Source: Nemertoderma westbladi (taxonomy: Eukaryota > Animalia > Xenacoelomorpha). Taken from it: DNA of 64,000 bases. Position 1 is the stretch's first letter, and the number at the start of each line of letters is the position of its first letter. The position numbers and the translations under genes are program-made. The stretch is from the NCBI GenBank assembly GCA_032718475.1, contig JAUCBJ010004577.1, positions 1 through 64,000 on the forward strand, written 5' to 3'. The notes beneath the pieces are model-generated. The model worked only from the letters and a program-made list of their open reading frames with translations, did not search any database and was not told the DNA's origin. Shown in pieces: positions 3,594-64,000 of this stretch.

Positions 3594-6500
3594 CTGAAAA
3601 AATGACAATTAAAAATAAATTAAACCTTTCCAGTCGTCTTTCCGGTTACTCCCACCCCACTATGTACATCTGTTACCTACCGGTTGTCAGGTTAGTCCCA
3701 CTAACCTTTCCGTTTGTTTATTCCCACTATCTTTTCCGGTTGTCCGGTTACTCCCACTAACCTTTCCGGTTGTCCGGATATTCCCACTAACCTTTCCTGT
3801 TATTCCCACTAACCTTTCCGGATGTCCGGTTACTCCCACTAACCTTTCCGGTTGTCCGGATATTCCCACTAACCTTTCCTGTTATTCCCACTAACCTTTC
3901 CGGATGTCCGGTTACTCCCACTAACCTTTCCGGTTGTCCGGATATTCCCACTATCTTTTCCGGTTGTCCGGTTACTCCCACTAACCTTTCCGGTTGTCCG
4001 GATATTCCCACTAACCTTTCCTGTTATTCCCACTAACCTTTCCGGATGTCCGGTTACTCCCACTAACCTTTCCGGTTGTCCGGATATTCCCACTAACCTT
4101 TCCGGTTGTCCGTTAATTCCAACTAACCTTTCCGGTTGTCCGGTTATTCCCACTAACCTTTCCTGTTATTCCCACTAACCTTTCCGGATGTCCGGTTACT
4201 CCCACTAACCTTTCCGGTTGTCCGGATATTCCCACTAACCTTTCCGGTTGTCAGTTAATTCCAACTAACCTTTCCGGTTGTCCGGTTATTCCCATTAACC
4301 TTTCCTGTTATTCCCACTAACCTTTCCGGTTGTCCGGTATTAGAACTAACCTTTCCGGTTGTCCGGTTATTCCCATTAACCTTTCGTGCTATTCCCACTA
4401 ACCTTTACGCTTGTCCGGTTATTCCCACTCCCCTTTCCGGTTATCCGGTTATTCCCACTAACCTTTCCGGTTGTCCGGTTATTCCCATTAACCTTTCGTG
4501 CTATTCCCACTAACCTTTCCGGTTGTCCGGATATTCCCACTAACCTTTCCTGTTATTCCCACTAACTAACATTTCCGGATGTCCGGTAATTCCCATTAAC
4601 CTTTCCAAATGTCCAGTTATTCCCATTAACCTTTCGTGCTATTCCCACTAACCTTTCCGGTTCTCCGGATATTCCCACTAACCTTTCCTGTTATTCCCAC
4701 TAACTAACATTTCCGGATGTCCGGTAATTCCCATTAACCTTTCCAAATGTCCAGTTATTCCCATTAACCTTTCGTGCTATTCCCACTAACCTTTCCGGTT
4801 GTCCGGATATTCCCACTAACCTTTCCTGTTATTCCCACTAACTAACATTTCCGGATGTCCGGTAATTCCCATTAACCTTTCGTGCTATTCCCACTAACCT
4901 TTACGGTTGTCCGGTTATTCCCACTCACCTTTCCGGTTGTCCGGTTATTCCCACTAACCTTTCCAGTTGTCCGGTAATTCCAACTAACCTTTCCGGTTGT
5001 CCGGTTATTCCCATTAACCTTTCGTGCTATTCCCACTAATCTTTCCGGTTGTCCGGATATTCCCATTAACCTTTCGTGCTATTCCCGGTTGTCCGCCTGT
5101 TATTCCCACTAACTAACATTTCCGGATGTCCGGTTATTCCCATTAACCTTTCCTGTTATTCCCACTAACCTTTCCGGTTGTCCGGTAATTAGAACTAACC
5201 TTTCCGGTTGTCCGGTTATTCCCATTAACCTTTCGTGCTATTCCCACTAACCTTTACGGTTGTCCGGTTATTCCCACTCCCCTTTCCGGTTATCCGGTTA
5301 TTCCCACTAACCTTTCCGGTTGTCCGGTTATTCCCATTAACCTTACGTGCTATTCCCACTAACCTTTCCGGTTGTCCGGATATTCCCACTAACCTTTCCT
5401 GTTATTCCCACTAACTAACATTTCCGGATGTCCGGTAATTCCCATTAACCTTTCCAAATGTCCAGTTATTCCCATTAACCTTTCGTGCTATTCCCACTAA
5501 CCTTTCCGGTTGTCCGGATATTCCCACTAACCTTTCCTGTTATTCCCACTAACTAACATTTCCGGATGTCCGGTAATTCCCATTAACCTTTCCAAATGTC
5601 CAGTTATTCCCATTAACCTTTCGTGCTATTCCCACTAACCTTTCCGGTTGTCCGGATATTCCCACTAACCTTTCCTGTTATTCCCACTAACTAACATTTC
5701 CGGATGTCCGGTAATTCCCATTAACCTTTCGTGCTATTCCCACTAACCTTTACGGTTGTCCGATTGTTCCCACTCACCTTTCCGGTTGTCCGGTTATTCC
5801 CACTAACATTTCCGGTTGTCCGGTTATTCCCACTCACCTTTCCGGTTGTCCGGTTATTCCCACTAACCTTTCCGTTTGTCCAGTTATTCCCACTACCTTT
5901 CCGGTTGTCCGGTTATTCCCACTCACCTTTCCGGTTGTCCGGTTATTCCCACTCACCTTTCCGGTTGTCCGGTTATTCCCACTAACCTTTCCGTTTGTCC
6001 GGTTATTCCCACGAACCTTTCCGGTTGTCCGGTGATTCCCACTCACCTTTCCGGTTGTCCGGTTATTCCCACTAACCTTTCCGTTTGTCCGGTTATTCCC
6101 ACTAACCTTTCCGTTTGTCCGGTTATTCCCACTCACCTTTCCGGTTGTCCGGTTATTCCCACTAACCTTTCCGTTTGTCCGGTTATTCCCACTAATCTTT
6201 CCGGTTGTCCGGTGATTCCCACTCACCTTTCCGGTTGTCCGGTTATTCCCACTAACCTTTCCGTTTGTCCGGTTATTCCCACTAACCTTTCCGTTTGTCC
6301 GGTTATTCCCACTAACATTTCCGGTTGTCCGGTTATTCCCACTCACCTTTCCGGTTGTCCGGTTATTCCCACTAACCTTTCCGTTTGTCCAGTTATTCCC
6401 ACTACCTTTCCGGTTGTCCGGTTATTCCCACTCACCTTTCCGGTTGTCCGGTTATTCCCACTCACCTTTCCGGTTGTCCGGTTATTCCCACTCACCTTTC

Positions 6501-9500
6501 CGGTTGTCCGGTTATTCCCACTAACCTTTCCGTTTGTCCGGTTATTCCCACTAACCTTTCCGGTTGTCCGGTGATTCCCGCTCGCCTTTCCGGTTGTCCG
6601 GTTATTCCCACTAACCTTTCCGTTTGTCCGGTTATTCCCACTAACCTTTCCGGTTGTCCGGTGATTCCCACTCGCTTTTCCGGTTGTCCGGTTATTCCCA
6701 CTAACCTTTACGTTTGTCCAGTTATTCCCACTACCTTTCCGGTTGTCCGGTTATTCCCACTCACCTTTCCGGTTGTCCGGTTATTCCCACTCACCTTTCC
6801 GGTTGTCCGGTTATTCCCACTAACCTTTCCGTTTGTCCGGTTATTTCCACTAACCTTTCCGGTTGTCCGGTTCTGTATGTTCAATATGTATTTTATATCA
6901 TCCTCACCGGGCGCTCCCGGCTTATCAATCTTATTCCCTAAGACTAGCACTGGTGCGTCAGAAACCTGTTCGTCGCTCAATAAAGATTCCAACTCTTGCT
7001 GTTAAACAATAAAAATTATTAAAAGAAAAGGGAAGTAAATAACTATATTAACTATCGACATATATATTTAATAGTTGTGTGTAAAGAATGATTTGTTACA
7101 CGAACGAGCTTAGTGAGTGAAAATACACATACGAGAATCCAAATACTGTCAAGCACTTACCAACAAGTATTTCGGTATCTTTATTGCATAATAACGAACC
7201 TGCCTATTAATAGGCCAGGGTAGTTCTTGTCAAGAGTTGAGCCGTTCAAAAACACGATGTGGTTATATATGTATGTATGTATATATTATATGTATAACCA
7301 TCCAATATCTCAAAAATTCAAGCAGGTACGCAAAAATTGTAAACCCGACTAGTTATCAATTAGTATCTAGTTGTTGAATAGAAAAGTTGGGAACGATTTG
7401 GTGTGCGATATTCGAAATATTAGCCTATTATCAACATTATGGAACGCGAAATTAAATACCCACAACTACACTTTGACAGCTGAACAACATTTCACTACTT
7501 ATTGTCAATTGGAGTTACGTATATTAATTATATCGTTAATTATTGTTCTATCTGTATTCAGTCAGTTAGTCTAATATCAAGCAGTACATCATTTATATAT
7601 CGTATGTATCTATATAGGGCCTATTGTCATCGTTATAATACTGTCATCAACTCAGGTTAAGCTCAATTGTAATGCGAAGGCTTAGTAGGGTTTGTATATC
7701 TGGGACGTTTACAACAGCTGTCGATTAAACTAACAAAACCAGAAAACTGAACCCAGGGTGCCAGCCGGGTACCAACGGCTGTTGGGTAGGGAACATTTCA
7801 CAAACTTTCATAGGGAGGCTTGTACATGTACATTATATTGGTTGCTCCGATGTTTTTATTAGGCTAACTGAGAATGTATCAGGTATAAATAATTAGGGAC
7901 AGGATACGATAGGAAAATGGATTTTCGTATTTCGTATCGCAGTATTTTATTCGTATCGAATTTCGTATTGTATCATATCGTATTCGTATCTGATTATTTT
8001 GAAAATATTAATGGTTTCAACAGTCAAACCAGAGATCACACCATGACCTACTATAAAGTATAATAAAAAGATTTTTTCTTAATATTGGTGTATAAATTAG
8101 CTTGAAGTTTACAGTTTTTATTATGTCAATAAAATGTGTAAGACAGTAGGAACGTTAATCTCATTGTAATTAACCGTAAAATAAAGATAAAAAGACCACT
8201 GAAATATAATATAAATAAAATAAACTTGCGAGGAGAATTCTAATCGCGCCTACAAGGCATTGATGTAATGATAGTGAGAGTTTAATAGAAATAAAACAGT
8301 TTTATTCTAGTTTGTTTGACTTCGAAATTGAAATTTTTAATTTTATTCCATATCGGTAAATCAAATTGAAAATTATTCCATAAATAACGGCAGTATGTAG
8401 GCCTAGCTAGGTACATCAGTACAGTGTGCATAAAGTATGGCATGGTAATATGGTAACGTCTACTATTGGGTCGGGTTGCATAACGTCCTTTGATTTTTTA
8501 TGGATGTTGTAGCCGGTAGACACACTATATTGATGTAGTAAGCATACCGTAGTGGACTGAAACATTGAAATAAAAAATATTTGCCTATTCTATAGATATT
8601 TATATGATTTTCTAAATGTAATTAAATAAAGTAACTAAATAAAGTACGATACGAAAAAAATACGAAACTTTTTTCGCATCGTATCGTATTTTCTCATAAT
8701 TGCATTCGTATCGTGAAAAATTGGTTAGTATCGTATCGTATCGTATCGTATCCTGTCGCTGTAAATAATTCGTGTTCTTTACTTTATTTATCTAATACAG
8801 AAAGACCCCTCCGCAGAATAAACTGCACTTTGGGGCCGTTTCCCAGGTTGCGGATAAGGATAACATTTCAAACATCGCACTAATTGTGATTGTGATTTGT
8901 TTGCCTAGGCCACTGTGTATTACATTAGATGGGGGGCAGTTTGTTTGGTTGATGCAAGTCATTCTTGGTTTACATCTTCCAATCACATCTGTTTCTTTGA
9001 GTGTCTGTGTAAGACAGGATCTTTTAAAGCCATCTTGATGGCGTTCTAGTTGTAACAATAACAATACGATCGCGTATAAAAAACAAATAAATCAAATATG
9101 TTGTTGTTGTTATTGAAAGTGTTAGACAATATAACTTCTTCCTAACTGCATTACTTTGTGCTGCAGTGGGTTTGGCTACAGCGGCCCGTTGGTGACTCAC
9201 CCTGGCTTCCGCGTAACGATCCTTATCGGTAACGTCCACTAGGAATACAACACCGTCGACAGCAGGAAAGTAATCCCTCCAGACTCTCCGCGCCTGTTCG
9301 TGGCCCCCCAAATCGAACGTTGTGAATCTCATTCCTCCCATTTGCAGTTCCTCGGAAGCTAAACAAACACATTTACATTTATGTCCAGTGTAGTTCAATT
9401 AGCTCGATTCACGATTTGTTAAACAATGTATTATAGTAATTATTAACACTTACTTGGATGTAGGGTAGGGACATGTTGGGCCAGGCGATCATCCTTTAAC

Positions 9501-10731
9501 ATATGAAGCAACGTTGTTTTCCCTGCGTTATCTAACCCGAGGAACACCAACTTCCCACTCTTTCGCATCAAACCTAAGATTCAACATAACAAACAACTGG
9601 TTGATTATTGTGCGTGTGGTTATATAATAAAAATAGGCCACCATTTTTTTATTAGCTAATAGCAAAATATATACAATTTTATAGATAGCTTTTGCTAATT
9701 TTTTATGTTCTTATTCTAGAAAATGTAATTTTTTTTCAGAAATACCGAAAATGCTTTTTAGAAAAATCAAATGAAATCTGGGACTACAGTTATAAGTCAA
9801 GTGTCAGAAATTGTGAAAAAGATTTCAGCTTCACTTTGCAATTTCCTTATATATTCCCTTATAAGTTTCTCAAGATCTACTCGGTGTATTTGTATGTTGT
9901 ATGGTATGTTTGAAAGATCTTTTAAATCACTACATTATAAATAACTGCTGACGCATTTATGTGCCGCCGAAAGCTACTGTGAAAAATAGTTAAAAAATAG
10001 AAAAGTAGACAAATTGTATACCGGTACTTTGAGTGAATTTATTTATTTAGGTATTGAATAATGGAATCTAGAACATCTTTATTTAATCGTATTGACATCT
10101 TTTTGGTTCCATTCGATAGCTGAGAAGTTCAACTCGTCTACAAATAATATGGCAATATAAAATTAAATTCAAGAATGCTTCGAAGCAGTTATTAATATAC
10201 CTTGTGTATACCTTGTTTATACTGTATGTGTATGTGTGTGTATACTTTTGATATCGAATTTAATGGTAAAAAAAGTAAGACAATAATGTAGACCACATTA
10301 GAACTCATTACAGAAAAAGGTAAATTAATCCAGAATTCTAGAATACTGAAAATGACCCAGGGGTGTTGGCGCAGTTCGGCAGGTGGTGTAGTACTAACAG
10401 TAGTATGCTCCATACACCATAGATACTGTTTCTGTGTTGGCGTTGGGTAAAGGTACACTTTTTATGTTAAGTTTGCCTCTTATTTGTTGCTTAGTAACGT
10501 CAGCTGCTGCGGGTATTGTTTAACATTATCTGAATTTTTGTAAAGTTTTTACTTTCCTTGTAAATAAATGAGACTCATATATTAGGTATTATTACTCCAC
10601 TATTCGGATTAATTTTTGTATCCCCATTTTATATTTTGACTTCGTTGTCTGAATACCGTACCACGGCGGCCAAATGATCTAAACTCACCTAAAGCTTGCA
10701 AAGTTCCGCAAAACCAATTCCATAAGAACAT
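3480..10731 (-). CDS. SAR1: SAR1 small GTPase (COPII), spliced gene: join(10731..10689, 9573..9454, 9358..9201, 6998..6855, 3593..3480), 192 aa
   Basis: Assembled translation [96 protein letters not shown]...[27 protein letters not shown]...[43 protein letters not shown]. It has G1 GLDNAGKT, G3 DLGGH, G4 NKID and the Sar1 C-terminal signature. All four introns are GT-AG with compatible phases. Confidence 0.97.
3624..6872 (-). repeat. 30-bp tandem array filling SAR1 intron 4; unit (minus) AACCGGACAACCGGAAAG|GT(T/G)AGTGGGAAT = last 18 nt of exon 4 plus first 12 nt of the intron; roughly 100 units including shortened variants
   Basis: Periodicity is directly visible. The first unit overlaps the exon (AAC CGG ACA ACC GGA AAG = NRTTGK). 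The array is homogeneous near 6850 and increasingly degenerate toward 3624. Confidence 0.97.
6855..6998 (-). CDS. SAR1: SAR1 coding exon 4 (NKID motif, ends NRTTGK)
   Basis: aacag|CAA GAG TTG ... ACC GGA AAG|gttagt. The 3' boundary is ambiguous because in-frame repeat donors follow at 6824, 6794, 6764 and 6734. Confidence 0.93.
7365..7507 (-). repeat. Dispersed repeat copy (inverse of 524-663) in SAR1 intron 3
   Basis: Reverse-complement match to 524-663. Confidence 0.9.
7894..8761. mobile_element. hAT-type MITE in SAR1 intron 3
   Basis: TIRs TAGGGACAGGATACGATA / TATCGTATCCTGTCGCTG. Perfect 8-bp TSD TAAATAAT (7886-7893, 8762-8769). Subterminal TCGTA repeats at both ends. Confidence 0.9.
9201..9358 (-). 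CDS. SAR1: SAR1 coding exon 3 ([12 protein letters not shown])
   Basis: tttag|CT TCC GAG GAA ... GCC AGG|gtgagt; lies within track ORF 9024..9398. Confidence 0.97.
9454..9573 (-). CDS. SAR1: SAR1 coding exon 2 (P-loop GLDNAGKTT)
   Basis: cttag|GT TTG ATG CGA ... CAT CCA A|gtaagt; 120 nt. Confidence 0.97.
10689..10731 (-). CDS. SAR1: SAR1 coding exon 1 ([16 protein letters not shown]-terminal amphipathic helix)
   Basis: ATG at 10731; ends TTA G|gtgagt (phase 1), matching the phase of exon 2. The MFLWxWF start is typical of Sar1. Confidence 0.9.
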
Positions 10732-21105: not shown

Positions 21106-21151
21106 AATCAGGCGTTGCCAGGTAGCGACATTTTATTCAATGTGTATTCTC

Positions 21152-44200: not shown

Positions 44201-47200
44201 TTGGGGTTGAGGTGGGTTTATGGGTTTAGGATTTACAGGAACTGGGGTAGGAGTGTCAACGACAATCTCGCGACTGTCGCTCGCTGCTCGGGATGTTTTA
44301 TGTCGGTCCTTCTTGCCAGATTTGCCGACGGGTTGTGCGACCGATGGCTGATCTCGAGTTTTACTTCCGACCCTGGAAGATTCCGACTTAGTTGAATTTT
44401 CTAGTGACGGCGGTTTCGTTTTTCGATGTGTTTCTGGCGAAATTGCGGGAACATTTGAAGGAGCATCAATCTCGCAAGTACCATTGGTTAAGGTCTATAA
44501 AACGATATTAAACTGTTTGTTTATAATTTAGTAATTAATTATTATAATACTTGGTTTCGTCTTAGTACTGGCTTTTTCTGTTTATAGTTTGTTTATAAGG
44601 GGTTACGACACTATTATATAATTTCAGGTCATTGTTCATAAAATAACACTATATATCGCGTTACGACACGAGATGCATGATGTTGCGACATAGCAAAACT
44701 GCGCCGAATCTAATTATATTTATTTGTGTGGAATTATATTTGTAATTATACACTCATTTAAACTTTCTAGAACAAACAACCCTTTAACACAGCAGAAGCA
44801 ATAATTATCAATGTACCAGAGTTGGGTGGTGGATAATACGCTGGACTGAGGATGGAAGGGTCATTGGTTCGAATCGAATCACAGTGATTTAGTTATTTTG
44901 ATTTAATGTGAGTTCAAATGCACCATGTCCTGTAACATTGTGTCATTATTCAGCGAGATTAACTCCACATAAAAATAAATAAATAATAACATAAGAATCA
45001 CTAACCTTAACAGAGTCTTTTTTCAATTTTGATTTCTCTTTTTTCTTTTCCTTTTTCGCGATTTTTTTCCGCTCTTTTGTTCCGTCGCCTTCGTTTATCC
45101 AACTAAGTAGTTCATCAACATTCCTGGCATCGTTATTATCCAAACCTGAAAACCGTCGGGTTTAATGAATTATGTGTTGGTGTCAAATGTGTTACGACAA
45201 AAGATACACCCAAACTGGGATAGATCAGATACGAGGTTTTATTTTACGACACGAGAACAAATAGTTCGAAATCAGCATATTTTCGGTCGGCATATATCTA
45301 CACAAACAGATTATCATTCAGAATATTTCACCCACCTTTAACTGTTGTAGTTGCCCCGTCTTTGGGCGCAGACCACGTGTTAATTTGCGACAATGGCGGT
45401 GTGCTAGTACCTGTAATATAGACGGTAGATTAGATAGTTAGATTGATTAGATAGTTAGATTGATTAGATAGTTAGACTGATTAGATAGTTAGATTGATTA
45501 GATAGTTAGATTGATTAGATAGTTAGATTGATTAGATAGTTAGATTGATTATATAGTTAGATTGATTAGATAGTTAGATTGATTAGATAGTTAGATTGAG
45601 TATATAGTTAGTTTGATTAGATAGTTAGATTGATTAGATAGTTAGATTGATTAGATAGTTAGATTGATTATATAGTTAGATTGATTAGATAGTTAGATTG
45701 ATTAGATAGTTAGATTGAGTATATAGTTAGTTTGATTAGATAGTTAGACTGATTAGATAGTTAGATTGATTAGATAGTTAGATTGATTAGATAGTTAGAT
45801 TGATTAGATAGTTAGATTGATTAGATAGTTAGATTGAGTATATAGTTAGTTTGATTAGATAGTTAGATTGATTAGATAGTTAGATTGATTAGATAGTTAG
45901 ATTGATTAGATAGTTAGATTGATTAGATAGTTAGATTGATTAGATAGTTAGATTGATTAGATAGTTAGATTGATTAGATAGTTAGATTGATTAGATAGTT
46001 AGATTGAGTATATAGTTAGTTTATTGAAATAATATATAATATATAATTTCTTGTAAATTTGGTTTCAACATTATTATAATAATTCTGACAATTTTCGCCC
46101 ATTGTGACTGGCTGTATGGTATGGGTAGTGGGTGACCACCTAATTTTTGCGGTTTAGTCAAAATTGGGAAAGTGATTGTTTAACAATCAAAACTATTGGT
46201 TTTTGTTAAAGAAGTTTTTAATTTAATAATCTAATGAAATGTTTAGCAATTAACATTTGAGAAGGAGGAATGTTTATAATGCTGCTTAAATGGTATTAAA
46301 ATGGTAAATAAAATAAAAAGAAAGACTAAAAATCATCTAACTAACCTGCGCAATGGCTGATATTGGAATGAGCGTTGTTACTAAGGATACAAGGTGTGCC
46401 AGTACCCCCACCTCCACCAACAACCTCTATACAACCCGCGGAACCACCGTTACCAACCGCAACCGCATCCGGTTGCTTCTTCTGTTTCAACTTCTTCCGT
46501 AGTCGCTCCTTAATCTCGGCGCAGTTCCGCCCCGCGGGGGACTGACTGTTCTGCGAGTGCGCGAAGATCTCGCAGTAGTAGCAGCTGCAGGGCTTCCCGT
46601 TGTCTCGTCGCCACGAGTCGTTGGTAGACTCGCTGTTCGTCTCGCTACTCTCCTCCTCGGAAACCTCGACGGATCCGTCGTCGCTCGATTCGGTCGGAGC
46701 CGGAACGCCGCCCGCCGCTACCCGACATAAACCCCGCGATTTCAGCAGCTCATCCGCGTTGGGGTGACTCAGAAGTTCAGCCACTATCTGTTGGGTTTTA
46801 TTCATCAACTGATCTTCTGCAAAAGCAATAATATTATTAATTTATAAATTGTTAATATTGAATGGGAGAATCTTTTAGGCTCGTTAAGCCAAGGAATGCC
46901 TGTTCACCACCATGGGTGATCTTCCACAGTAAACCCTTCCACTCTGTTTCCCAAGTTGCCTTGGCTCCCATTTATCGACCACTGAAGGATGAAAGCCGGG
47001 GTTGGGCTAGGCTGCAGCATTTAAAGCACTGTGCCCAAACAGTGCTGCCCCATCTAGGGATCGAACCAGGGCTCCCTAATCGGAAGCCCAGTAATGTCAC
47101 CACTAGACCAAGCTGCTGCAAATTGTTTATATTACTATAACAATAATCTTATTTTTAAAATTACATTAAAACCACATAAATAATGAAAAAAGATAATTCG

Positions 47201-48559: not shown

Positions 48560-49350
48560 ACAAGAAATTATAACAGCAGCTAAAGTTAAGCTAAATATTT
48601 AGCAATAAGAGGTCATAACGAAAAGGGTGGCAACAAAAATGGGAATGAAAAGGTAAAAGTACACTAAGCCCATTGAGGATCTTTGGTGGATCCTTGAAGA
48701 AATGCATAGAAGGAAAGACAGCCTATCGATCCATCATCTTTGTATATTTCTGTAGGTCTTCGATTATGTCTCTTAAAATACGACTTATATACAGTAAGTA
48801 AAATGTTGTAGTACTTAAAAATTTGATGTTATTCGCTGTTTTCAGATCAAGGAGACCAAAGGGCGATATCAGTGGCGGACGATTTGATAGCCTTAGTAAC
48901 TAAACGAACAGATGCTCTAGTATTCGTATGTATCCTAACGGTTTGGTTAGATTCCAGCTTCATCTATCCTAGCCTATTCTCCGTCTTCACGAACTCTAAC
49001 ACAAGACAAACAGGAGTTCTAGAAACATCGATTATATTCGCAAGCGGACCCCACATAGAAACCACAAGTTTTCTTACATAAGATTTCTTCAAGACCTTCG
49101 ATTTCGTCTCTCGACAGCGCATAATGTTTACGATTGTTGATGCCTATTGGATATGATGAGATATTGCTGCAATCAAATCACAGTGATGATTCACCAACAC
49201 TTATCTCTATAACAGATAAATAGAGTCGCATATGAAGTGTCATGTGGTGTCGTCCAAGGTGAGAGTAACACGCTTGCGTCTTACCTTGCGGTGGACTTTA
49301 TGCTGCGAATGTCTCTCAACCAACATAATATAAATGGGGTAGAAATACAG
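48560..49350 (+). mobile_element. Two heavily decayed RTE-family RT remnants (about 48560-48775 and 48850-49350)
   Basis: Remnant translations KPIEDLWWILEEMHRRKD..IIFV.F..FDYVS and DFFKTFDFVSR...EVSCGVVQGESNTLASYLAVDFMLRMSLNQHNINGVEI parallel the 19291..20133 protein (EPILALRRIIEELSKKKD, GVLQGDTLAPFLF..VDYVLRMSLDHHNDDGVMI). Confidence 0.75.
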
Positions 49351-49360
49351 CTAGCAGTGA

Positions 49361-52300
49361 TAGTAGAAGTAAGCGAAAACCAGCAACACACTAGTAGAAG
49401 TAGACGAAAACCAGAAATACACTAGTAGAAGTAGTCGAAAACCAACAATACACTAGTAGAAGTAGACGAAAAGCAACAATACACTAGTAGAAGTAGACGA
49501 AAACCAACAATACACTAGTAGAAGTAAACGAAAATCAGCAATACACTAGTAGAAGTAGACGAAAACCAACAATACACTAGTCGAAGTAGACGAAAACCAA
49601 CAATACACTAGTAGAAGTAGACGAAAACCAACAATACACTAGTAGAAGTAGACGAAAACCAACAATACACTAGTCGAAGTAGACGAAAACCAACAATACA
49701 CTAGTAGAAGTAGACAAAAACCAACAATACACAAGTAGAAGTAGACGAAAACCAACAATATACTAGTAGAAGAAGACGAAAACCAACAATATACTAGTAG
49801 AAGAAGACGAAAACCAACAATACACTAGAAGAAGTAGATAAAAACCAACAATACACTAGAAGAAGTAGATAAAAACCAACAATACACTAGTAGAAGAAGA
49901 CGAAAACCAACAATACACTAGTAGAAGTAGACGAAAACCAACAATACACTAGTAGAAGTAGACGAAAACCAACAATATACTAGTAGAAGTAGACGAAAAC
50001 CAACAATACACTAGTAGAAGTAGACGAAAACCAACAATACACTAGTAGAAGTAGACGAAAACCAACAATACACTAGTAGAAGTAGACGAAAACCAACAAT
50101 ATACTAGTAGAAGTAGACGAAAACCAACAATACACTAGAAGAAGTAGATAAAAACCAACAATACACTAGAAGAAGTAGATAAAAACCAACAATACACTAG
50201 TAGAAGAAGACGAAAACCAACAATACACTAGTAGAAGTAGATAAAAACCAACAATACACTAGAAGAAGTAGATAAAAACCAACAATACACTAGAAGAAGT
50301 AGATGAAAACCAACAATACACTAGAAGAAGTAGATAAAAACCAACAATACACTAGTAGAAGAAGACGAAAACCAACAATACACTAGTAGAAGTAGACGAA
50401 AACCAACAATACACTAGAAGAAGTAGATAAAAACCAACAATACACTAGTAGAAGAAGACGAAAACCAACAATACACTAGTAGAAGTAGACGAAAACCAAC
50501 AATACACTAGTAGAAGTAGACGAAAACCAACAATACACTAGAAGAAGTAGATAAAAACCAACAATACACTAGTAGAAGAAGACGAAAACCAACAATACAC
50601 TAGTAGAAGTAGACGAAAACCAACAATACACTAGAAGAAGTAGATAAAAACCAACAATACACTAGAAGAAGTAGATAAAAACCAACAATACACTAGTAGA
50701 AGAAGACGAAAACCAACAATACACTAGTAGAAGTAGATAAAAACCAACAATACACTAGTAGAAGTAGACGAAAACCAACAATACACTAGAAGAAGTAGAT
50801 AAAAACCAACAATACACTAGAAGAAGTAGATAAAAACCAACAATACACTAGTAGAAGAAGACGAAAACCAACAATACACTAGTAGAAGTAGATAAAAACC
50901 AACAATACACTAGAAGAAGTAGACGAAAACCAACAATACACTAGAAGAAGTAGATAAAAACCAACAATACACTAGTAGAAGAAGACGAAAACCAACAATA
51001 CACTAGTAGAAGTAGATAAAAACCAACAATACACTAGAAGAAGTAGATAAAAACCAACAATACACTAGAAGAAGTAGATAAAAACCAACAATACACTAGT
51101 AGAAGAAGACGAAAACCAACAATACACTAGTAGAAGTAGACGAAAACCAACAATACACTAGTAGAAGTAGACGAAAACCAACAATACACTAGTAGAAGTA
51201 GACGAAAACCAACAATATACTAGTAGAAGAAGACGAAAACCAACAATACACTAGAAGAAGTAGATAAAAACCAACAATACACTAGAAGAAGTAGATAAAA
51301 ACCAACAATACACTAGTAGAAGAAGACGAAAACCAACAATACACTAGTAGAAGTATACGAAAACCAACAATACACTAGTAGAAGTAGACGAAAACCAACA
51401 ATATACTAGTAGAAGTAGATAAAAACCAACAATACACTAGTAGAAGAAGACGAAAACCAACAATACACTAGTAGAAGTATACGAAAACCAACAATACACT
51501 AGTAGAAGTAGACGAAAACCAACAATATACTAGTAGAAGTAGATAAAAACCAACAATACACTAGTAGAAGAAGACGAAAACCAACAATACACTAGTAGAA
51601 GAAGACGAAAACCAACAATACACTAGAAGAAGTAGACGAAAACCAACAATACACTAGTAGAAGAAGACGAAAACCAACAATACACTAGAAGAAGTAGATA
51701 AAAACCAACAATACACTAGTAGAAGAAGACGAAAACCAACAATACACTAGTAGAAGTAGACGAAAACCAACAATACACTAGTAGAAGTAGACGAAAACCA
51801 ACAATATACTAGTAGAAGTAGACGAAAACCAACAATACACTAGTAGAAGAAGACGAAAACCAACAATACACTAGTAGAAGTAGACGAAAACCAACAATAC
51901 ACTAGTAGAAGTAGACGAAAACCAACAATACACTAGTAGAAGAAGACGAAAACCAACAATACACTAGTAGAAGTAGACGAAAACCAACAATACACTAGTA
52001 GAAGTATACGAAAACCAACAATACACTAGTAGAAGTAGACGAAAACCAACAATATACTAGTAGAAGAAGACGAAAACCAACAATACACTAGAAGAAGTAG
52101 ATAAAAACCAACAATACACTAGAAGAAGTAGATAAAAACCAACAATACACTAGTAGAAGAAGACGAAAACCAACAATACACTAGTAGAAGTAGACGAAAA
52201 CCAACAATACACTAGTAGAAGTAGACGAAAACCAACAATACACTAGTAGAAGTAGACGAAAACCAACAATACACTAGTAGAAGTAGACGAAAACCAACAA

Positions 52301-55300
52301 TACACTAGTAGAAGTATACGAAAACCAACAATACACTAGTAGAAGTAGACGAAAACCAACAATACACTAGTAGAAGTAGACGAAAACCAACAATACACTA
52401 GTAGAAGTAGACGAAAACCAACAATATACTAGTAGAAGAAGACGAAAACCAACAATACACTAGAAGAAGTAGATAAAAACCAACAATACACTAGAAGAAG
52501 TAGATAAAAACCAACAATACACTAGTAGAAGAAGACGAAAACCAACAATACACTAGTAGAAGTATACGAAAACCAACAATACACTAGTAGAAGTAGACGA
52601 AAACCAACAATATACTAGTAGAAGTAGATAAAAACCAACAATACACTAGTAGAAGAAGACGAAAACCAACAATACACTAGAAGAAGTAGATAAAAACCAA
52701 CAATACACTAGTAGAAGAAGACGAAAACCAACAATACATTAGTAGAAGAAGACGAAAACCAACAATACACTAGAAGAAGTAGATAAAAACCAACAATACA
52801 CTAGAAGAAGTAGACGAAAACCAACAATACACTAGTAGAAGTAGACGAAAAGCAACAATACACTAGTAGAAGTTGACGAAAACCAACAATACACTAGAAG
52901 AAGTAGATAAAAACCAACAATACACTAGAAGAAGTAGACGAAAACCAACAATACACTAGTAGAAGAAGACGAAAACCAACAATACACTAGTAGAAGAAGA
53001 CGAAAACCAACAATACACTAGAAGAAGTAGATAAAAACCAACAATACACTAGTAGAAGAAGACGAAAACCAACAATACACTAGAAGAAGTAGATAAAAAC
53101 CAACAATACACTAGTAGAAGAAGACGAAAACCAACAATACACTAGTAGAAGAAGACGAAAACCAACAATACACTAGTAGAAGAAGACGAAAACCAACAAT
53201 ACACTAGAAGAAGTAGATAAAAACCAACAATACACTAGTAGAAGAAGACGAAAACCAACAATACACTAGAAGAAGTAGATAAAAACCAACAATACACTAG
53301 TAGAAGAAGACGAAAACCAACAATACACTAGTAGAAGTAGACGAAAACCAACAATACACTAGTAGAAGTAGACGAAAACCAACAATATACTAGTAGAAGT
53401 AGACGAAAACCAACAATACACTAGTAGAAGAAGACGAAAACCAACAATACACTAGAAGAAGTAGATAAAAACCAACAATACACTAGTAGAAGAAGACGAA
53501 AACCAACAATACACTAGTAGAAGTAGACGAAAACCAACAATACACTAGTAGAAGTAGACGAAAACCAACAATATACTAGTAGAAGTAGACGAAAACCAAC
53601 AATACACTAGAAGAAGTAGATAAAAACCAACAATACACTAGTAGAAGAAGACGAAAACCAACAATACACTAGTAGAAGAAGACGAAAACCAACAATACAC
53701 TAGAAGAAGTAGATAAAAACCAACAATACACTAGTAGAAGAAGACGAAAACCAACAATACACTAGTAGAAGAAGACGAAAACCAACAATACACTAGTAGA
53801 AGAAGACGAAAACCAACAATACACTAGTAGAAGTAGACGAAAACCAACAATACACTAGTAGAAGAAGACGAAAACCAACAATACACTAGTAGAAGTAGAC
53901 GAAAACCAACAATACACTAGTAAAAGTAGACGAAAACCAACAATACACTAGTAGAAGTAGACGAAAACCAACAATATACTAGTAGAAGAAGACGAAAACC
54001 AACAATACACTAGAAGAAGTAGATAAAAACCAACAATACACTAGAAGAAGTAGACGAAAACCAACAATACACTAGTAGAAGTAGACGAAAAGCAACAATA
54101 CACTAGTAGAAATAAACGAAAACCAACAATACACTAGTAGAAGTAGACGAAAACCAACAATACACTAGTATAAGTAAACGAAAATCAGCAATACACTAGT
54201 AGAAGTAGACGAAAACCAACAATACACTAGTAGAAGTATACGAAAACCAACAATACACTAGTAGAAGTAGACGAAAACCAGCAATACACTAGTAGAAGTA
54301 GACAAAAACCAACAATACACTAGTAGAAGTAGACGAAAACCAACAATACACTAGTAGAAGTAGACGAAAACCAACAATATACTAGTAGAAGAAGACGAAA
54401 ACCAACAATACACTAGAAGAAGTAGATAAAAACCAACAATACACTAGTAGAAGTAGACGAAAACCAACAATATACTAGTAGAAGAAGACGAAAACCAACA
54501 ATACACTAGAAGAAGTAGATAAAAACCAACAATACACTAGAAGAAGTAGACGAAAACCAACAATACACTAGTAGAAGAAGACGAAAACCAACAATACACT
54601 AGAAGAAGTAGATAAAAACCAACAATACACTAGTAGAAGAAGACGAAAACCAACAATACACTAGTAGAAGTAGACGAAAACCAACAATACACTAGTAGAA
54701 GAAGACGAAAACCAACAATACACTAGAAGAAGTAGATAAAAACCAACAATACACTAGTAGAAGAAGACGAAAACCAACAATACACTAGTAGAAGTAGACG
54801 AAAACCAACAATACACTAGTAGAAGAAGACGAAAACCAACAATACACTAGTAGAAGTAGACGAAAACCAACAATACACTAGTAGAAGTAGACGAAAACCA
54901 ACAATATACTAGTAGAAGTAGACGAAAACCAACAATACACTAGTAGAAGAAGACGAAAACCAACAATACACTAGAAGAAGTAGATAAAAACCAACAATAC
55001 ACTAGTAGAAGAAGACGAAAACCAACAATACACTAGTAGAAGTAGACGAAAACCAACAATACACTAGTAGAAGTAGACGAAAACCAACAATATACTAGTA
55101 GAAGTAGACGAAAACCAACAATACACTAGTAGAAGTAGACGAAAACCAACAATATACTAGTAGAAGTAGACGAAAACCAACAATACACTAGAAGAAGTAG
55201 ATAAAAACCAACAATACACTAGTAGAAGAAGACGAAAACCAACAATACACTAGTAGAAGAAGACGAAAACCAACAATACACTAGTAGAAGAAGACGAAAA

Positions 55301-58300
55301 CCAACAATACACTAGAAGAAGTAGATAAAAACCAACAATACACTAGTAGAAGAAGACGAAAACCAACAATACACTAGAAGAAGTAGATAAAAACCAACAA
55401 TACACTAGTAGAAGAAGACGAAAACCAACAATACACTAGTAGAAGTAGACGAAAACCAACAATACACTAGTAGAAGTAGACGAAAACCAACAATATACTA
55501 GTAGAAGTAGACGAAAACCAACAATACACTAGTAGAAGAAGACGAAAACCAACAATACACTAGTAGAAGTAGACGAAAACCAACAATACACTAGTAGAAG
55601 TAGACGAAAACCAACAATACACTAGTAGAAGAAGACGAAAACCAACAATACACTAGTAAAAGTAGACGAAAACCAACAATACACTAGTAGAAGTAGACGA
55701 AAACCAACAATACACTAGTAGAAGTAGACGAAAACCAACAATATACTAGTAGAAGAAGACGAAAACCAACAATACACTAGAAGAAGTAGACGAAAACCAA
55801 CAATACACTAGTAGAAGAAGACGAAAACCAACAATACACTAGTAGAAGTAGACGAAAACCAACAATACACTAGTAAAAGTAGACGAAAACCAACAATACA
55901 CTAGTAGAAGTAGACGAAAACCAACAATATACTAGTAGAAGAAGACGAAAACCAACAATACACTAGAAGAAGTAGATAAAAACCAACAATACACTAGAAG
56001 AAGTAGACGAAAACCAACAATACACTAGTAGAAGTAGACGAAAAGCAACAATACACTAGTAGAAGTAGACGAAAACCAACAATACACTAGTAGAAGTAGA
56101 CGAAAACCAACAATACACTAGTAGAAGTAGACGAAAACCAACAATACACTAGTAGAAGTAGACGAAAACCAACAATACACTAGTAGAAGTAGACAAAAAC
56201 CAACAATACACTAGTAGAAGTAGACGAAAACCAACAATACACTAGTAGAAGTAGACGAAAACCAACAATACACTAGTAGAAGAAGACGAAAACCAACAAT
56301 ACACTAGTAGAAGTAGACGAAAACCAACAATACACTAGTAGAAGTAGACGAAAACCAACAATACACTAGTAGAAGTAGACGAAAACCAACAATACACTAG
56401 TAGAAGTAGACGAAAACCAACAATACACTAGTAGAAGTAGACGAAAACCAACAATACACTAGTAGAAGTAGACGAAAACCAACAATACACTAGTAGAAGT
56501 AGACGAAAACCAACAATACACTAGTAGAAGTAGACGAAAACCAACAATACACTAGTAGAAGTAGACGAAAACCAACAATACACTAGTAGAAGTAGACGAA
56601 AACCAACAATACACTAGTAGAAGTAGACGAAAACCAACAATACACTAGTAGAAGAAGACGAAAACCAACAATACACTAGTAGAAGTAGACGAAAACCAAC
56701 AATACACTAGTAAAAGTAGACGAAAACCAACAATACACTAGTAGAAGTAGACGAAAACCAACAATATACTAGTAGAAGAAGACGAAAACCAACAATACAC
56801 TAGAAGAAGTAGATAAAAACCAACAATACACTAGTAGAAGTAGACGAAAACCAACAATATACTAGTAGAAGAAGACGAAAACCAACAATACACTAGAAGA
56901 AGTAGATAAAAACCAACAATACACTAGAAGAAGTAGACGAAAACCAACAATACACTAGTAGAAGTAGACGAAAAGCAACAATACACTAGTAGAAGTAGAC
57001 GAAAACCAACAATACACTAGTAGAAGTAGACGAAAACCAACAATACACTAGTAGAAGTAGACGAAAACCAACAATACACTAGTAGAAGTAGACGAAAACC
57101 AACAATACACTAGTAGAAGAAGACGAAAACCAACAATACACTAGTAGAAGTAGACGAAAACCAACAATACACTAGTAAAAGTAGACGAAAACCAACAATA
57201 CACTAGTAGAAGTAGACGAAAACCAACAATATACTAGTAGAAGAAGACGAAAACCAACAATACACTAGAAGAAGTAGATAAAAACCAACAATACACTAGA
57301 AGAAGTAGACGAAAACCAACAATACACTAGTAGAAGTAGACGAAAAGCAACAATACACTAGTAGAAGTAGACGAAAACCAACAATACACTAGTAGAAGTA
57401 GACGAAAACCAACAATACACTAGTAGAAGTAGACGAAAACCAACAATACACTAGTAGAAGAAGACGAAAACCAACAATACACTAGTAGAAGTAGACGAAA
57501 ACCAACAATACACTAGTAAAAGTAGACGAAAACCAACAATATACTAGTAGAAGAAGACGAAAACCAACAATACACTAGAAGAAGTAGATAAAAACCAACA
57601 ATACACTAGTAGAAGAAGACGAAAACCAACAATACACTAGAAGAAGTAGATAAAAACCAACAATACGCTAGAAGAAGTAGATAAAAACCAACAATACACT
57701 AGTAGAAGTAGACGAAAACCAACAATACACTAGTAGAAGAAGACGAAAACCAACAATATACTAGTAGAAGAAGACGAAAACCAACAATACACTAGAAGAA
57801 GTAGATAAAAACCAACAATACACTAGAAGAAGTAGACGAAAACCAACAATACACTAGTAGAAGAAGACGAAAACCAACAATATACTAGTAGAAGAAGACG
57901 AAAACCAACAATACACTAGAAGAAGTAGATAAAAACCAACAATACACTAGTAGAAGAAGACGAAAACCAACAATACACTAGAAGAAGTAGACGAAAACCA
58001 ACAATACACTAGTAGAAGTAGACGAAAACCAACAATATACTAGTAGAAGAAGACGAAAACCAACAATACACTAGAAGAAGTAGACGAAAACCAACAATAC
58101 ACTAGAAGAAGTAGACGAAAACCAACAATACACTAGTAGAAGTAGACGAAAACCAACAATATACTAGTAGAAGAAGACGAAAACCAACAATACACTAGAA
58201 GAAGTAGACGAAAACCAACAATATACTAGTAGAAGTAGACGAAAACCAACAATATACTAGTAGAAGAAGACGAAAACCAACAATATACTAGTAGAAGAAG

Positions 58301-61300
58301 ACGAAAACCAACAATACACTAGAAGAAGTAGACGAAAACCAACAATATACTAGTAGAAGTAGACGAAAACCAACAATACACTAGTAGAAGAAGACGAAAA
58401 CCAACAATACACTAGAAGAAGAAGACGAAAACCAACAATACACTAGAAGAAGTAGATAAAAACCAACAATACACTAGAAGAAGTAGACGAAAACCAACAA
58501 TATACTAGTAGAAGTAGACGAAAACCAACAATACACTAGTAAAAGTAGACGAAAACCAACAATATACTAGTAGAAGAAGACGAAAACCAACAATATACTA
58601 GTAGAAGAAGACGAAAACCAACAATATACTAGTAGAAGTATACGAAAACCAACAATACACTAGTAAAAGTAGACGAAAACCAACAATACACTAGTAGAAG
58701 TAGACGAAAACCAACAATATACTAGTAGAAGAAGACGAAAACCAACAATACACTAGAAGAAGTAGATAAAAACCAACAATACACTAGTAGAAGAAGACGA
58801 AAACCAACAATACACTAGTAGAAGTAGACGAAAACCAACAATACACTAGTAGAAGAAGACGAAAACCAACAATACACTAGTAGAAGTAGACGAAAACCAA
58901 CAATACACTAGTAAAAGTAGACGAAAACCAACAATACACTAGTAGAAGTAGACGAAAACCAACAATATACTAGTAGAAGAAGACGAAAACCAACAATACA
59001 CTAGAAGAAGTAGATAAAAACCAACAATACACTAGAAGAAGTAGACGAAAACCAACAATACACTAGTAGAAGTAGACGAAAACCAACAATACACTAGTAG
59101 AAGAAGACGAAAACCAACAATATACTAGTAGAAGAAGACGAAAACCAACAATATACTAGTAGAAGAAGACGAAAACCAACAATATACTAGTAGAAGTATA
59201 CGAAAACCAACAATACACTAGTAAAAGTAGACGAAAACCAACAATACACTAGTAGAAGTAGACGAAAACCAACAATATACTAGTAGAAGAAGACGAAAAC
59301 CAACAATACACTAGAAGAAGTAGATAAAAACCAACAATACACTAGTAGAAGAAGACGAAAACCAACAATACACTAGTAGAAGTAGACGAAAACCAACAAT
59401 ACACTAGTAGAAGAAGACGAAAACCAACAATACACTAGTAGAAGTAGACGAAAACCAACAATACACTAGTAAAAGTAGACGAAAACCAACAATACACTAG
59501 TAGAAGTAGACGAAAACCAACAATATACTAGTAGAAGAAGACGAAAACCAACAATACACTAGAAGAAGTAGATAAAAACCAACAATACACTAGAAGAAGT
59601 AGACGAAAACCAACAATACACTAGTAGAAGTAGACGAAAACCAACAATACACTAGTAGAAGAAGACGAAAACCAACAATATACTAGTAGAAGAAGACGAA
59701 AACCAACAATACACTAGAAGAAGTAGATAAAAACCAACAATACACTAGTAGAAGAAGACGAAAACCAACAATACACTAGTAGAAGTAGACGAAAACCAAC
59801 AATACACTAGTAAAAGTAGACGAAAACCAACAATACACTAGTAGAAGTAGACGAAAACCAACAATATACTAGTAGAAGAAGACGAAAACCAACAATACAC
59901 TAGAAGAAGTAGATAAAAACCAACAATACACTAGTAGAAGTAGACGAAAACCAACAATACACTAGTAGAAGTAGACGAAAACCAACAATATACTAGTAGA
60001 AGAAGACGAAAACCAACAATACACTAGAAGAAGTAGATAAAAACCAACAATACACTAGTAGAAGTAGACGAAAACCAACAATACACTAGTAGAAGTAGAC
60101 GAAAACCAACAATATACTAGTAGAAGAAGACGAAAACCAACAATACACTAGAAGAAGTAGATAAAAACCAACAATACACTAGTAGAAGAAGACGAAAACC
60201 AACAATACACTAGTAGAAGTAGACGAAAACCAACAATACACTAGTAAAAGTAGACGAAAACCAACAATACACTAGTAGAAGTAGACGAAAACCAACAATA
60301 TACTAGTAGAAGAAGACGAAAACCAACAATACACTAGAAGAAGTAGATAAAAACCAACAATACACTAGAAGAAGTAGACGAAAACCAACAATACACTAGT
60401 AGAAGTAGACGAAAACCAACAATACACTAGTAGAAGTAGACGAAAACCAACAATATACTAGTAGAAGTAGACGAAAACCAACAATACACTAGTAGAAGTA
60501 GACGAAAACCAACAATACACTAGTAGAAGTAGACGAAAACCAACAATACACGAGTAGAAGTAGACGAAAAGCAACAATACACTAGTAGAAGTAGACAAAA
60601 ACCAACAATACACTAGTAGAAGTAGACGAAAAGCAACAATACACTAGTAGAAGAAGACGAAAACCAACAATACACTAGTAGAAGTAGACGAAAACCAACA
60701 ATACACTAGTAGAAGTAGACGAAAACCAACAATACACTAGTAGAAGTAGACGAAAACCAACAATACACTAGTAGAAGAAGACGAAAACCAACAATACACT
60801 AGTAGAAGTAGACGAAAACCAACAATACACTAGTAAAAGTAGACGAAAACCAACAATACACTAGTAGAAGTAGACGAAAACCAACAATATACTAGTAGAA
60901 GAAGACGAAAACCAACAATACACTAGAAGAAGTAGATAAAAACCAACAATACACTAGAAGAAGTAGACGAAAACCAACAATACACTAGTAGAAGTAGACG
61001 AAAAGCAACAATACACTAGTAGAAATAAACGAAAACCAACAATACACTAGTAGAAGTAGACGAAAACCAACAATACACTAGTATAAGTAAACGAAAATCA
61101 GCAATACACTAGTAGAAGTAGACGAAAACCAACAATACACTAGTAGAAGTATACGAAAACCAACAATACACTAGTAGAAGTAGACGAAAACCAGCAATAC
61201 ACTAGTAGAAGTAGACAAAAACCAACAATACACTAGTAGAAGTAGACGAAAACCAACAATACACTAGTAGAAGTAGACGAAAACCAACAATATACTAGTA

Positions 61301-64000
61301 GAAGAAGACGAAAACCAACAATACACTAGAAGAAGTAGATAAAAACCAACAATACACTAGTAGAAGTAGACGAAAACCAACAATATACTAGTAGAAGAAG
61401 ACGAAAACCAACAATACACTAGAAGAAGTAGATAAAAACCAACAATACACTAGAAGAAGTAGACGAAAACCAACAATACACTAGTAGAAGTAGACGAAAA
61501 GCAACAATACACTAGTAGAAGTAGACGAAAACCAACAATACACTAGTAGAAGTAGACGAAAACCAACAATACACTAGTAGAAGTAGACGAAAACCAACAA
61601 TACACAAGTAGAAGTAGACGAAAACCAACAATACACTAGTAGAAGAAGACGAAAACCAACAATACACTAGTAGAAGTAGACGAAAACCAACAATACACTA
61701 GTAAAAGTAGACGAAAACCAACAATACACTAGTAGAAGTAGACGAAAACCAACAATATACTAGTAGAAGAAGACGAAAACCAACAATACACTAGAAGAAG
61801 TAGATAAAAACCAACAATACACTAGAAGAAGTAGACGAAAACCAACAATACACTAGTAGAAGTAGACGAAAAGCAACAATACACTAGTAGAAGTAGACGA
61901 AAACCAACAATACACTAGTAGAAGTAGACGAAAACCAACAATACACTAGTAGAAGTAGACGAAAACCAACAATACACTAGTAGAAGAAGACGAAAACCAA
62001 CAATACACTAGTAGAAGTAGACGAAAACCAACAATACACTAGTAAAAGTAGACGAAAACCAACAATATACTAGTAGAAGAAGACGAAAACCAACAATACA
62101 CTAGAAGAAGTAGATAAAAACCAACAATACACTAGAAGAAGTAGACGAAAACCAACAATACACTAGTAGAAGAAGACGAAAACCAACAATATACTAGTAG
62201 AAGAAGACGAAAACCAACAATACACTAGAAGAAGTAGATAAAAACCAACAATACACTAGTAGAAGAAGACGAAAACCAACAATACACTAGTAGAAGTAGA
62301 CGAAAACCAACAATACACTAGTAAAAGTAGACGAAAACCAACAATACACTAGTAGAAGTAGACGAAAACCAACAATATACTAGTAGAAGAAGACGAAAAC
62401 CAACAATACACTAGAAGAAGTAGATAAAAACCAACAATACACTAGAAGAAGTAGACGAAAACCAACAATACACTAGTAGAAGTAGACGAAAACCAACAAT
62501 ATACTAGTAGAAGAAGACGAAAACCAACAATACACTAGAAGAAGTAGACGAAAACCAACAATATACTAGTAGAAGTAGACGAAAACAAACAATATACTAG
62601 TAGAAGAAGACGAAAACCAACAATATACTAGTAGAAGAAGACGAAAACCAACAATACACTAGAAGAAGTAGACGAAAACCAACAATATACTAGTAGAAGT
62701 AGACGAAAACCAACAATATACTAGTAGAAGAAGACGAAAACCAACAATACACTAGAAGAAGTAGACGAAAACCAACAATACACTAGTAGAAGAAGACGAA
62801 AACCAACAATACACTAGTAGAAGTAGACGAAAACCAACAATACACTAGTAAAAGTAGACGAAAACCAACAATACACTAGTAGAAGTAGACGAAAACCAAC
62901 AATATACTAGTAGAAGAAGACGAAAACCAACAATACACTAGAAGAAGTAGATAAAAACCAACAATACACTAGAAGAAGTAGACGAAAACCAACAATACAC
63001 TAGTAGAAGTAGACGAAAACCAACAATACACTAGTAGAAGAAGACGAAAACCAACAATATACTAGTAGAAGAAGACGAAAACCAACAATACACTAGAAGA
63101 AGTAGATAAAAACCAACAATACACTAGTAGAAGAAGACGAAAACCAACAATACACTAGTAGAAGTAGACGAAAACCAACAATACACTAGTAAAAGTAGAC
63201 GAAAACCAACAATACACTAGTAGAAGTAGACGAAAACCAACAATACACTAGTAGAAGTAGACGAAAACCAACAATATACTAGTAGAAGAAGACGAAAACC
63301 AACAATATACTAGTAGAAGTAGACGAAAACCAACAATATACTAGTAGAAGTAGACGAAAACCAACAATATACTAGTAGAAGAAGACGAAAACCAACAATA
63401 TACTAGTAAAAGTAGACGAAAACCAACAATACACTAGTAGAAGTAGACGAAAACCAACAATACACTAGTAGAAGTAGACGAAAACCAACAATATACTAGT
63501 AGAAGAAGACGAAAACCAACAATATACTAGTAGAAGTAGACGAAAACCAACAATATACTAGTAGAAGTAGACGAAAACCAACAATACACTAGTAGAAGTA
63601 GACGAAAACCAACAATACACTAGTAGAAGTAGACGAAAACCAACAATATACTAGTAGAAGTAGACGAAAACCAACAATATACTAGTAGAAGAAGACGAAA
63701 ACCAACAATACACTAGAAGAAGTAGATAAAAACCAACAATACACTAGTAGAAGTAGACGAAAACCAACAATACACTAGTAGAAGTAGACGAAAACCAACA
63801 ATATACTAGTAGAAGAAGACGAAAACCAACAATACACTAGAAGAAGTAGATAAAAACCAACAATACACTAGTAGAAGTAGACGAAAACCAACAATACACT
63901 AGTAGAAGTAGACGAAAACCAACAATATACTAGTAGAAGAAGACGAAAACCAACAATACACTAGAAGAAGTAGATAAAAACCAACAATACACTAGTAGAA
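49361..64000. repeat. 31-bp satellite (CTAGTAGAAGTAGACGAAAACCAACAATACA)n, about 470 units, runs off the window end
   Basis: Direct periodicity. Main variants are TAGTAGAAGTAGACG, TAGTAGAAGAAGACG and TAGAAGAAGTAGATA. The first two units are degenerate. Confidence 0.99.

Follow-up and report, generated by a model that had tools for sequence, protein, structure and literature searches.

Mirages, minisatellites that repeat the edge of an intron, are known from few genes only, and the original amphioxus paper, on Adh3, is reportedly that of Canestro et al. 2002. In lancelets, the globins BflGb6/BflGb9 and Adh3 carry intron-exon boundaries, 5' or 3', that are duplicated in tandem, with units of 10–160 bp, 3–6 copies in one globin and unaffected splicing (PMC3087553), and the class has been extended to PGBD5 and troponin C (PMC3902484). 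Human junction repeats of the variable number of tandem repeats (VNTR) type include the F7 IVS7 (intervening sequence 7) 37-mer, 6-16, CBS intron 13, LAMIN B2 (LMNB2) and PDGF intron 4; in F7 constructs the most upstream donor is used, and sometimes the next two (PMC1557585). Here we analyzed a window, i.e., the whole stretch of 64,000 nucleotides (nt) of Nemertoderma westbladi contig JAUCBJ010004577.1, positions 1 to 64,000 of the forward strand, containing no N, in which two neighbouring genes, SAR1 and FAM193, carry four such arrays. These arrays are likely a large, dense variant of the known, under-studied mirage or junction-minisatellite kind and not a new system.

Of the 33 rows that Tandem Repeats Finder returned for the window, 5 belong to the four large arrays, 14 are sub-periods nested in these and 14 are small repeats elsewhere. 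The large arrays cover 54% of the window, and their share is 76% in the FAM193 span and 44% in the SAR1 coding span; all four are head-to-tail minisatellites inside a gene, their units are unrelated to one another, and within the window each is confined to one intron. Both genes lie on the minus strand, as indicated by Pfam Arf over four exons and by Pfam FAM193_C. Splice signals are duplicated inside the units of every array, with 72 donors in the 30-mer of SAR1 and, in FAM193, 468 AG in the 31-mer, 350 CTAAC in the 29-mer and 35 CTAAC in the 17-mer. A preliminary description of this DNA had reported three arrays of unrelated sequence and a fourth array, together with a SAR1 intron of 3.26 kb, a short SAR1 intron of 95 nt and a FAM193 intron of 20.5 kb. 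We recovered all of these, with 3,261 nt for SAR1 intron 4, 95 nt for the short SAR1 intron and 20,461 nt for the FAM193 last intron.

As in amphioxus, units that repeat a boundary are found on the 5' as well as the 3' side, a gene or genome has several of them, and the arrays are mosaics of variants with divergent edge units; the accessible parts of the amphioxus papers report no aberrant mRNA. The copy numbers differ, with ~111, ~550 and at least 472 here versus 2–7 in lancelet globins and PGBD5 (Adh3 is not in that figure), and two of our units, the 29-mer and the 17-mer, end short of the junction. The host differs as well, one SAR1 exon being 73% identical to amphioxus and the two standing apart in the tree. 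Some lancelet units may likewise be free of exon sequence, a point for which the mirage alignments of PMC3087553 may be relevant. With the human VNTRs, the SAR1 array shares a first monomer that crosses the exon/donor junction and is followed by identical pseudo-donors, and the title on LAMIN B2 cited in PMC1557585 has the repeat covering most of an intron; however, the human cases have 5–25 copies against 72 SAR1 donor copies, are donor-side only, and had their splicing measured, whereas that of the arrays here is predicted. Satellite-filled giant introns of Drosophila Y-linked genes likewise owe their size mostly to tandem repeats that are transcribed and spliced past, but they reach hundreds of kb to Mb, and the accessible part of PMC11207136 gives no sign that those satellites derive from the introns' own splice signals. 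The statement of the preliminary description on novelty, that it knew of no described system with such a pattern, therefore fails, as amphioxus mirages (PMC3087553, PMC3902484) and human F7 and others (PMC1557585) precede it. What is new here is the size (arrays of ~14 kb), the density in FAM193 and the branch-point-only units. Our literature search, with most subscription papers outside its coverage, found no genome-wide survey of such arrays and no branch-point-only array.

The SAR1 30-mer array is, by its structure, a mirage. Its unit consists of the final 16 nt of exon 4 and the initial 14 nt of intron 4 and thus spans the exon-intron boundary; the exon end is copied exactly 44 times, and the array holds 72 AG/GT[TG]AGT donors, the real donor included. 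In the distal part there are shorter 23/26/29-nt variants, degenerate copies continue to ~3625, and the 86 nt of intron 4 that remain without the array are partly such copies. Since the copied exon bases encode a TTGK motif that is present in 79/120 SAR1 homologs, the exon gave rise to the array, in accordance with the local origin from splice signals proposed in the preliminary description. A metagenome comparison of the exon 4 junction covered 25 loci, 3 of them with GT directly after the exon. Two, from distant eukaryotes (L007 and L013), have introns of 114 and 122 nt at this position with no tandem repeat, which indicates that SAR1 intron 4 predates the array; for the third locus, no downstream exon was found. 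The gene model itself is anchored by the Pfam Arf profile, covered in order by four exons (Table 1), and by the spliced protein, which aligns to 120/120 homologs listed at up to 78% identity. When the first donor is used, the protein is collinear with all of these homologs, and the exon 4/5 junction shows a single one-residue gap in most of the 116 alignments that cover it, an indirect sign that the spare donors may be silent.

On the transcribed strand, the 31-mer array of FAM193 reads as a pyrimidine tract plus TAG. Its end lies 10 nt from the acceptor at 49351, whose TAG opens a probable 66-nt exon. Among its monomers, 392/473 begin with exon nt 2–7 and one edge unit carries nt 2–10, with a chance probability of ~0.002; a boundary-spanning unit requires that ~10 nt were lost from it, and the exon behind is without significant homology. 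Judging from the sequence, the 31-mer probably spans the acceptor of this probable exon and would hence be a mirage, which is more than the preliminary description had proposed for it. The 31-mer consensus contains AG, but the CTTAC that resembles a branch point at -20 of its final unit has given way to other sequence in almost all of the remaining units.

The other two FAM193 units do not span an exon-intron boundary, and the consensus of both lacks AG. The 17-mer array ends 16 nt before the AG of the acceptor at 45411, with CTAAC at -28 and CTAAT at -20 as predicted branch points, and its match ends 16 nt before the exon. The 29-mer, with ~550 copies in total (~480 and ~72), is split by a non-long-terminal-repeat (non-LTR) retrotransposon, and its match ends 8 nt before the exon. 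The 26-nt stretch of predicted branch point and pyrimidine tract at the real FAM193 acceptor has one exact match and 82 one-mismatch matches inside the array. Although they stop short of the junction, the 29- and 17-mers would work like mirages. The signals that the preliminary description had assigned to the four units are present in the sequence, the branch points as predictions. Its statement that three of the arrays each begin at a functional splice signal held in part: it is true of the SAR1 30-mer, but the 29-mer array starts 54 nt past the donor and its working copy is cut off by 473 nt. Protein homology demonstrates function only for the SAR1 donor and for the exons behind the 29-mer acceptor; the branch points come from prediction, and no significant match was obtained for the exon that follows the 31-mer.

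Each of the large arrays coincides with a splice signal or borders on one (4/4), versus 0/12 small repeats lying within 280 nt of a modelled splice site, the 12 being the 14 rows minus a poly-G run and one nested row. Under a per-base null, in which a unit is placed over 11 collapsed introns and counted as a match when it overlaps a donor or the last 40 nt, the probability is ~5e-4 for four arrays, 3e-3 for the three beside better-supported exons and 5e-6 with intergenic DNA added. Seeding per intron gives 0.34–0.42 per array and ~0.02 for four, and seeding in 95-nt introns gives 0.70–0.85 per array, i.e., no signal. The window was, in addition, picked for its odd appearance. The splice-site pattern is probably real locally, with a strength that depends on the null, and four arrays cannot represent the genome.

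The last null corresponds to an account in which arrays arise anywhere, and nearly any unit overlaps a splice signal because introns were then ~90–120 nt long. In its favour, 86 and 88 nt remain of two host introns after collapse, introns without arrays measure 95, 118 and 190 nt, and the distant orthologous introns have 114 and 122 nt. However, short introns make up a few percent of collapsed intron bases, so that 4/4 keeps the per-base and per-intron probabilities given above, and the intron of the 17-mer retains 340 nt after collapse (p 0.21). We regard this by-product account as unlikely. 

We consider it moderately probable that the arrays are explained as a whole by local duplication of splice edges, growth by unequal exchange, silent decoys and long survival beside the exon. 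Each of the four minisatellites likely began as a 17–41-nt tandem duplication at the edge of its own intron, and the arrays likely expanded to 0.6–15 kb through unequal exchange. Monomers differ from the consensus by 3–9%, and variants recur in nested blocks at offsets of 849, 2,231 and 6,913 nt. Nested blocks of variant monomers are the expected outcome of unequal exchange; together with the divergence they fit this process, unlike a simple assembly loop. An assembly artefact, with array lengths inflated or misjoined, could draw on exact internal repeats of up to 948 nt, but the monomers form nested mosaics of 8–67 variant types, one array contains a retrotransposon with a 12-nt target-site duplication and the window is free of N, so we give this explanation hardly any credence.

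The bias toward splice sites may stem mostly from survival and not from birth, which is the step of which we are least sure. Where a working signal in a short intron anchors an array, that array could not be deleted together with its flanks and would shrink only by internal exchange; anchored arrays would therefore persist and drift large, and unanchored repeats would stay small or vanish. The one support for this step is the contrast between large arrays and small repeats described above. The same contrast speaks on both sides of a birth-driven account, in which pausing, R-loops or breaks at splice sites, coupled to splicing or transcription, seed the duplications, a type of cause named in the preliminary description. 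All large arrays lie at signals, the pattern recurs in lancelet (PMC3087553, PMC3902484) and human genes (PMC1557585), and 3/4 units are strongly strand-asymmetric; on the other hand, none of the 12 small, presumably young repeats lies near a modelled splice site, the sequence gives no direct evidence of such coupling, and PMC3087553 calls the generating mechanism unclear. Coupled mutagenesis thus appears to us quite unlikely.

The composition of the units was considered as well. Their internal repetitiveness is not unusual compared with intron windows, except weakly for the 17-mer (fractions 0.05–0.09), so pre-existing microhomology is not shown. A motif could drive growth instead, one that appears in the donor as GTTAGT and, on the opposite strand, in the branch point as CTAAC: GTTAG/CTAAC occurs in 3/4 units versus 3–5% of array-free windows, and only 2 of 12 acceptors have CTAAC at -12 to -40, both of them array-bearing. 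This observation is post hoc and not independent of splice-site position, the largest array (the 31-mer) lacks the motif, and 2/3 GTTAG donors have no array at that donor; motif-driven instability is accordingly a very unlikely cause.

As each array repeats just one side of an exon's signals, the arrays are predicted to be spliced past. By analogy with F7 and the lancelet mirages, the spliceosome would leave the SAR1 exon at the first donor that follows it and enter each FAM193 exon at the last of the acceptors preceding it. The three FAM193 arrays contain 0 GTRAG/GTTAG donors and the SAR1 array, with 30% pyrimidine, 0 complete acceptors; hence no pseudo-exon is framed within an array. A recursive-splicing ratchet is a complete acceptor directly followed by a donor inside an intron, and none was found in the arrays; one candidate with a weak tract lies outside them at 23464. 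Stepwise use of the arrays, suggested in the preliminary description, finds no support in these counts. Among the 71 downstream SAR1 donors, 68 run into a stop and 3 extend the protein by 10–30 residues. These three are the first spare donors (6764–6854, minus strand), in frame and stop-free, and leaky use would add 10, 20 or 30 residues.

That the decoys are functional, serving stepwise (recursive) splicing or tuning expression through in-frame SAR1 extensions or poison isoforms, might be read from the 30-nt SAR1 unit with three downstream donors in frame and stop-free, and from an AG/GTAAGT 218 nt before the last FAM193 acceptor, of which 0.009 are expected in 473 nt. Yet one unit length in three is a multiple of three by chance, the spare sites of the cases on record are mostly silent, the FAM193 arrays have no donors and the SAR1 array no complete acceptors, which leaves a functional role highly improbable. 

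Several observations weigh against the preferred reading of locally born, silently spliced arrays. The direction of copying, from signal to array or from an array copy to the signal, is not fixed for the 29- and 17-mers. Perfect SAR1 donors are kept 112–250 nt from the acceptor, a usable short-intron distance. Complete decoy acceptors are formed by 71 variant 29-mers (62 donor-side and 9 others), by a filter that passes just 6/12 real acceptors, and they are not depleted near the donor, with 9, 14, 9, 8, 8, 6 and 8 per 2 kb and the first at 419 nt. Many of the small repeats are intergenic or of another class. The predicted splice-site choice and any generality would, moreover, be drawn from the DNA of one window.

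The arrays also bear on intron size. The FAM193 last intron shrinks to 88 nt when the arrays, the retrotransposon and the 473-nt stretch are removed, and, should that stretch belong to the original intron, to 561 nt; the smaller figure depends on the stretch being an insertion, which it probably is, given a 6-nt flank duplication. The small remainders claimed earlier thus stand for SAR1 (86 nt) and conditionally for FAM193. Inflation of small introns by arrays applies to at least one, and probably two, of them, but the 17-mer intron keeps 340 nt, so its host was no minimal intron. Array-free introns or intervals measure 95, 118, 190, 511, 912, 1,115, 1,192 and 2,202 nt, and the four of 0.9–2.2 kb show that arrays are not the sole route to long introns here. 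A lineage-wide version holds that satellites anchored on splice signals are the main engine of intron gigantism, that most large introns are ~90-nt introns inflated 10- to 200-fold by their own donor, acceptor or bare branch point, that the class is wider than mirages and splicing-coupled or dependent on GTTAG/CTAAC, and that the spliceosome picks one among hundreds of near-identical signals; it strikes us as doubtful. This genome suits the question of why minisatellites gather at splice sites, by birth or by survival, and of their share in intron growth. SAR1, with a perfect donor not only where the exon ends but also at a distance of 112 nt from the acceptor, offers a natural test of first-come or exon definition against intron definition.

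The gene models and arrays are listed in Table 1. The SAR1 models leave out 5' untranslated region introns, and in a SAR1 tree of 38 rows (the window sequence and 37 of the 120 homologs) the host comes out as an animal on a long branch close to annelid sequences, a placement that is unsure. For the FAM193 exon at 46816–46346, names were looked up for 10 proteins, 9 of them among the 55 matches, and 5 clusters were named FAM193. For the exons upstream of 46816, neither blastp nor tblastn nor a profile built on 24 N-terminal regions gave significant homology, and a word-based search with the FAM193 last exon gave no match. Between 49078 (phase 1) and 47885 (phase 0), no convincing exon that would join the two phases came up, the candidates being just 5 nt and 17 nt long; the 5-nt candidate microexon (47986–47990, minus strand) fits the phases of 49166–49078 and 47885–47729 and leaves a 100-nt intron, with no homology backing. 

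Table 1. Coordinates of the modelled exons, introns, arrays and insertions in the window
Feature	Positions	Strand	Content or evidence
SAR1 last coding exon with stop	3480..3593	-	Pfam Arf 146-173; collinear with homologs
SAR1 intron 4	3594..6854	-	3,261 nt; 86 nt remain without array
SAR1 30-mer array	3680..6870	-	Crosses exon/donor junction; ~111 units
SAR1 coding exon 4	6855..6998	-	Pfam Arf 102-144; final 16 nt = first half of 30-mer unit
SAR1 coding exon 3	9201..9358	-	Pfam Arf 51-101; 316 homologs
SAR1 coding exon 2	9454..9573	-	Pfam Arf 12-48; GT-AG ends; then 95-nt intron 9453-9359
SAR1 first coding exon	10689..10731	-	Homolog N-termini as tblastn queries, 2/6 with E 3e-5 to 4e-5; spliced frame open
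FAM193 last coding exon	23077..23246	-	Pfam FAM193_C E 3.9e-13; 51-57% identity in seven best matches
FAM193 last intron	23247..43707	-	20,461 nt
Detached 29-mer copy	23255..23280	-	Provides CTAAC as predicted branch point (A at -21) and the pyrimidine tract for real acceptor at 23247
473-nt stretch between array and working copy	23281..23753		6-nt flank duplication; (GTCG)29; one AG/GTAAGT at 23464
29-mer array, acceptor-side block	23754..25858	-	~72 units
Non-LTR retrotransposon	25859..29712	-	Endonuclease and reverse transcriptase, 937-aa open frame; 12-nt target-site duplication
29-mer array, donor-side block	29713..43653	-	~480 units; consensus = CTAAC and pyrimidine tract, no AG
FAM193 penultimate exon	43708..44494	-	Open frame and phase fit; no family match
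FAM193 exon	45006..45145	-	blastp E 4e-7 to FAM193 homologs
FAM193 75-nt exon behind 17-mer	45336..45410	-	Phase fit between two homology-backed exons; without homology of its own
17-mer array	45427..46021	-	35 units, CTAAC/CTAAT repeated, 2 AG in 595 nt
FAM193 exon with conserved Cys-rich motif	46346..46816	-	55 HMMER matches, several named FAM193A/B
Probable FAM193 exon	47729..47885	-	Splice signals and phase only
Probable FAM193 exon	49078..49166	-	Splice signals and phase only
Probable FAM193 exon behind 31-mer	49285..49350	-	Strong donor and 118-nt intron; homology E 3.3, not significant
31-mer array	49361..64000	-	Pyrimidine-rich; continues beyond the window, at least 472 units, 468 of them with TAG

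The retrotransposon inside the 29-mer array is near full-length and in sense orientation, and its nearest relatives are 30–38% identical and mostly unnamed. The array predates its insertion, because 55/73 monomers on one side belong to types shared with the other side. Its upstream frame seems interrupted near 28930, a typical C-terminal motif is found in another frame, and the 5' end resembles the 29-mer unit. Nine bases of the 29-mer unit (29713–43653) match, on the plus strand, the common animal telomere repeat. A scan of metagenome contigs for the exact 29-nt unit did not find it, which is an uninformative result, and an Rfam search gave no match.

Inside the 473-nt stretch, a (GTCG)29 microsatellite lies between 17-nt inverted repeats (23570–23708). 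The AG/GTAAGT at 23464–23465 (minus strand) follows a weak tract (53% pyrimidine), like that of one real acceptor; it is possibly a ratchet point or a cryptic donor, and a 64-nt frameshifting exon could precede it, none of 5 candidates being an in-frame open exon ending at this donor.

Elsewhere in the window, interspersed repeats of 83–86% identity pair 517–751 with 7274–7511 (inverted), 19276–19613 with 21152–21487 (direct) and 15888–15981 with 16319–16415 (inverted). These are probably old mobile elements, one of which sits in SAR1 intron 3. Upstream of SAR1, a 37-nt perfect inverted repeat with TCAGA units occurs at 12342–12378 and 13990–14026, 1.6 kb apart, and may form the borders of a mobile element that contains a 70-mer present 2.5 times at 12942–13116.

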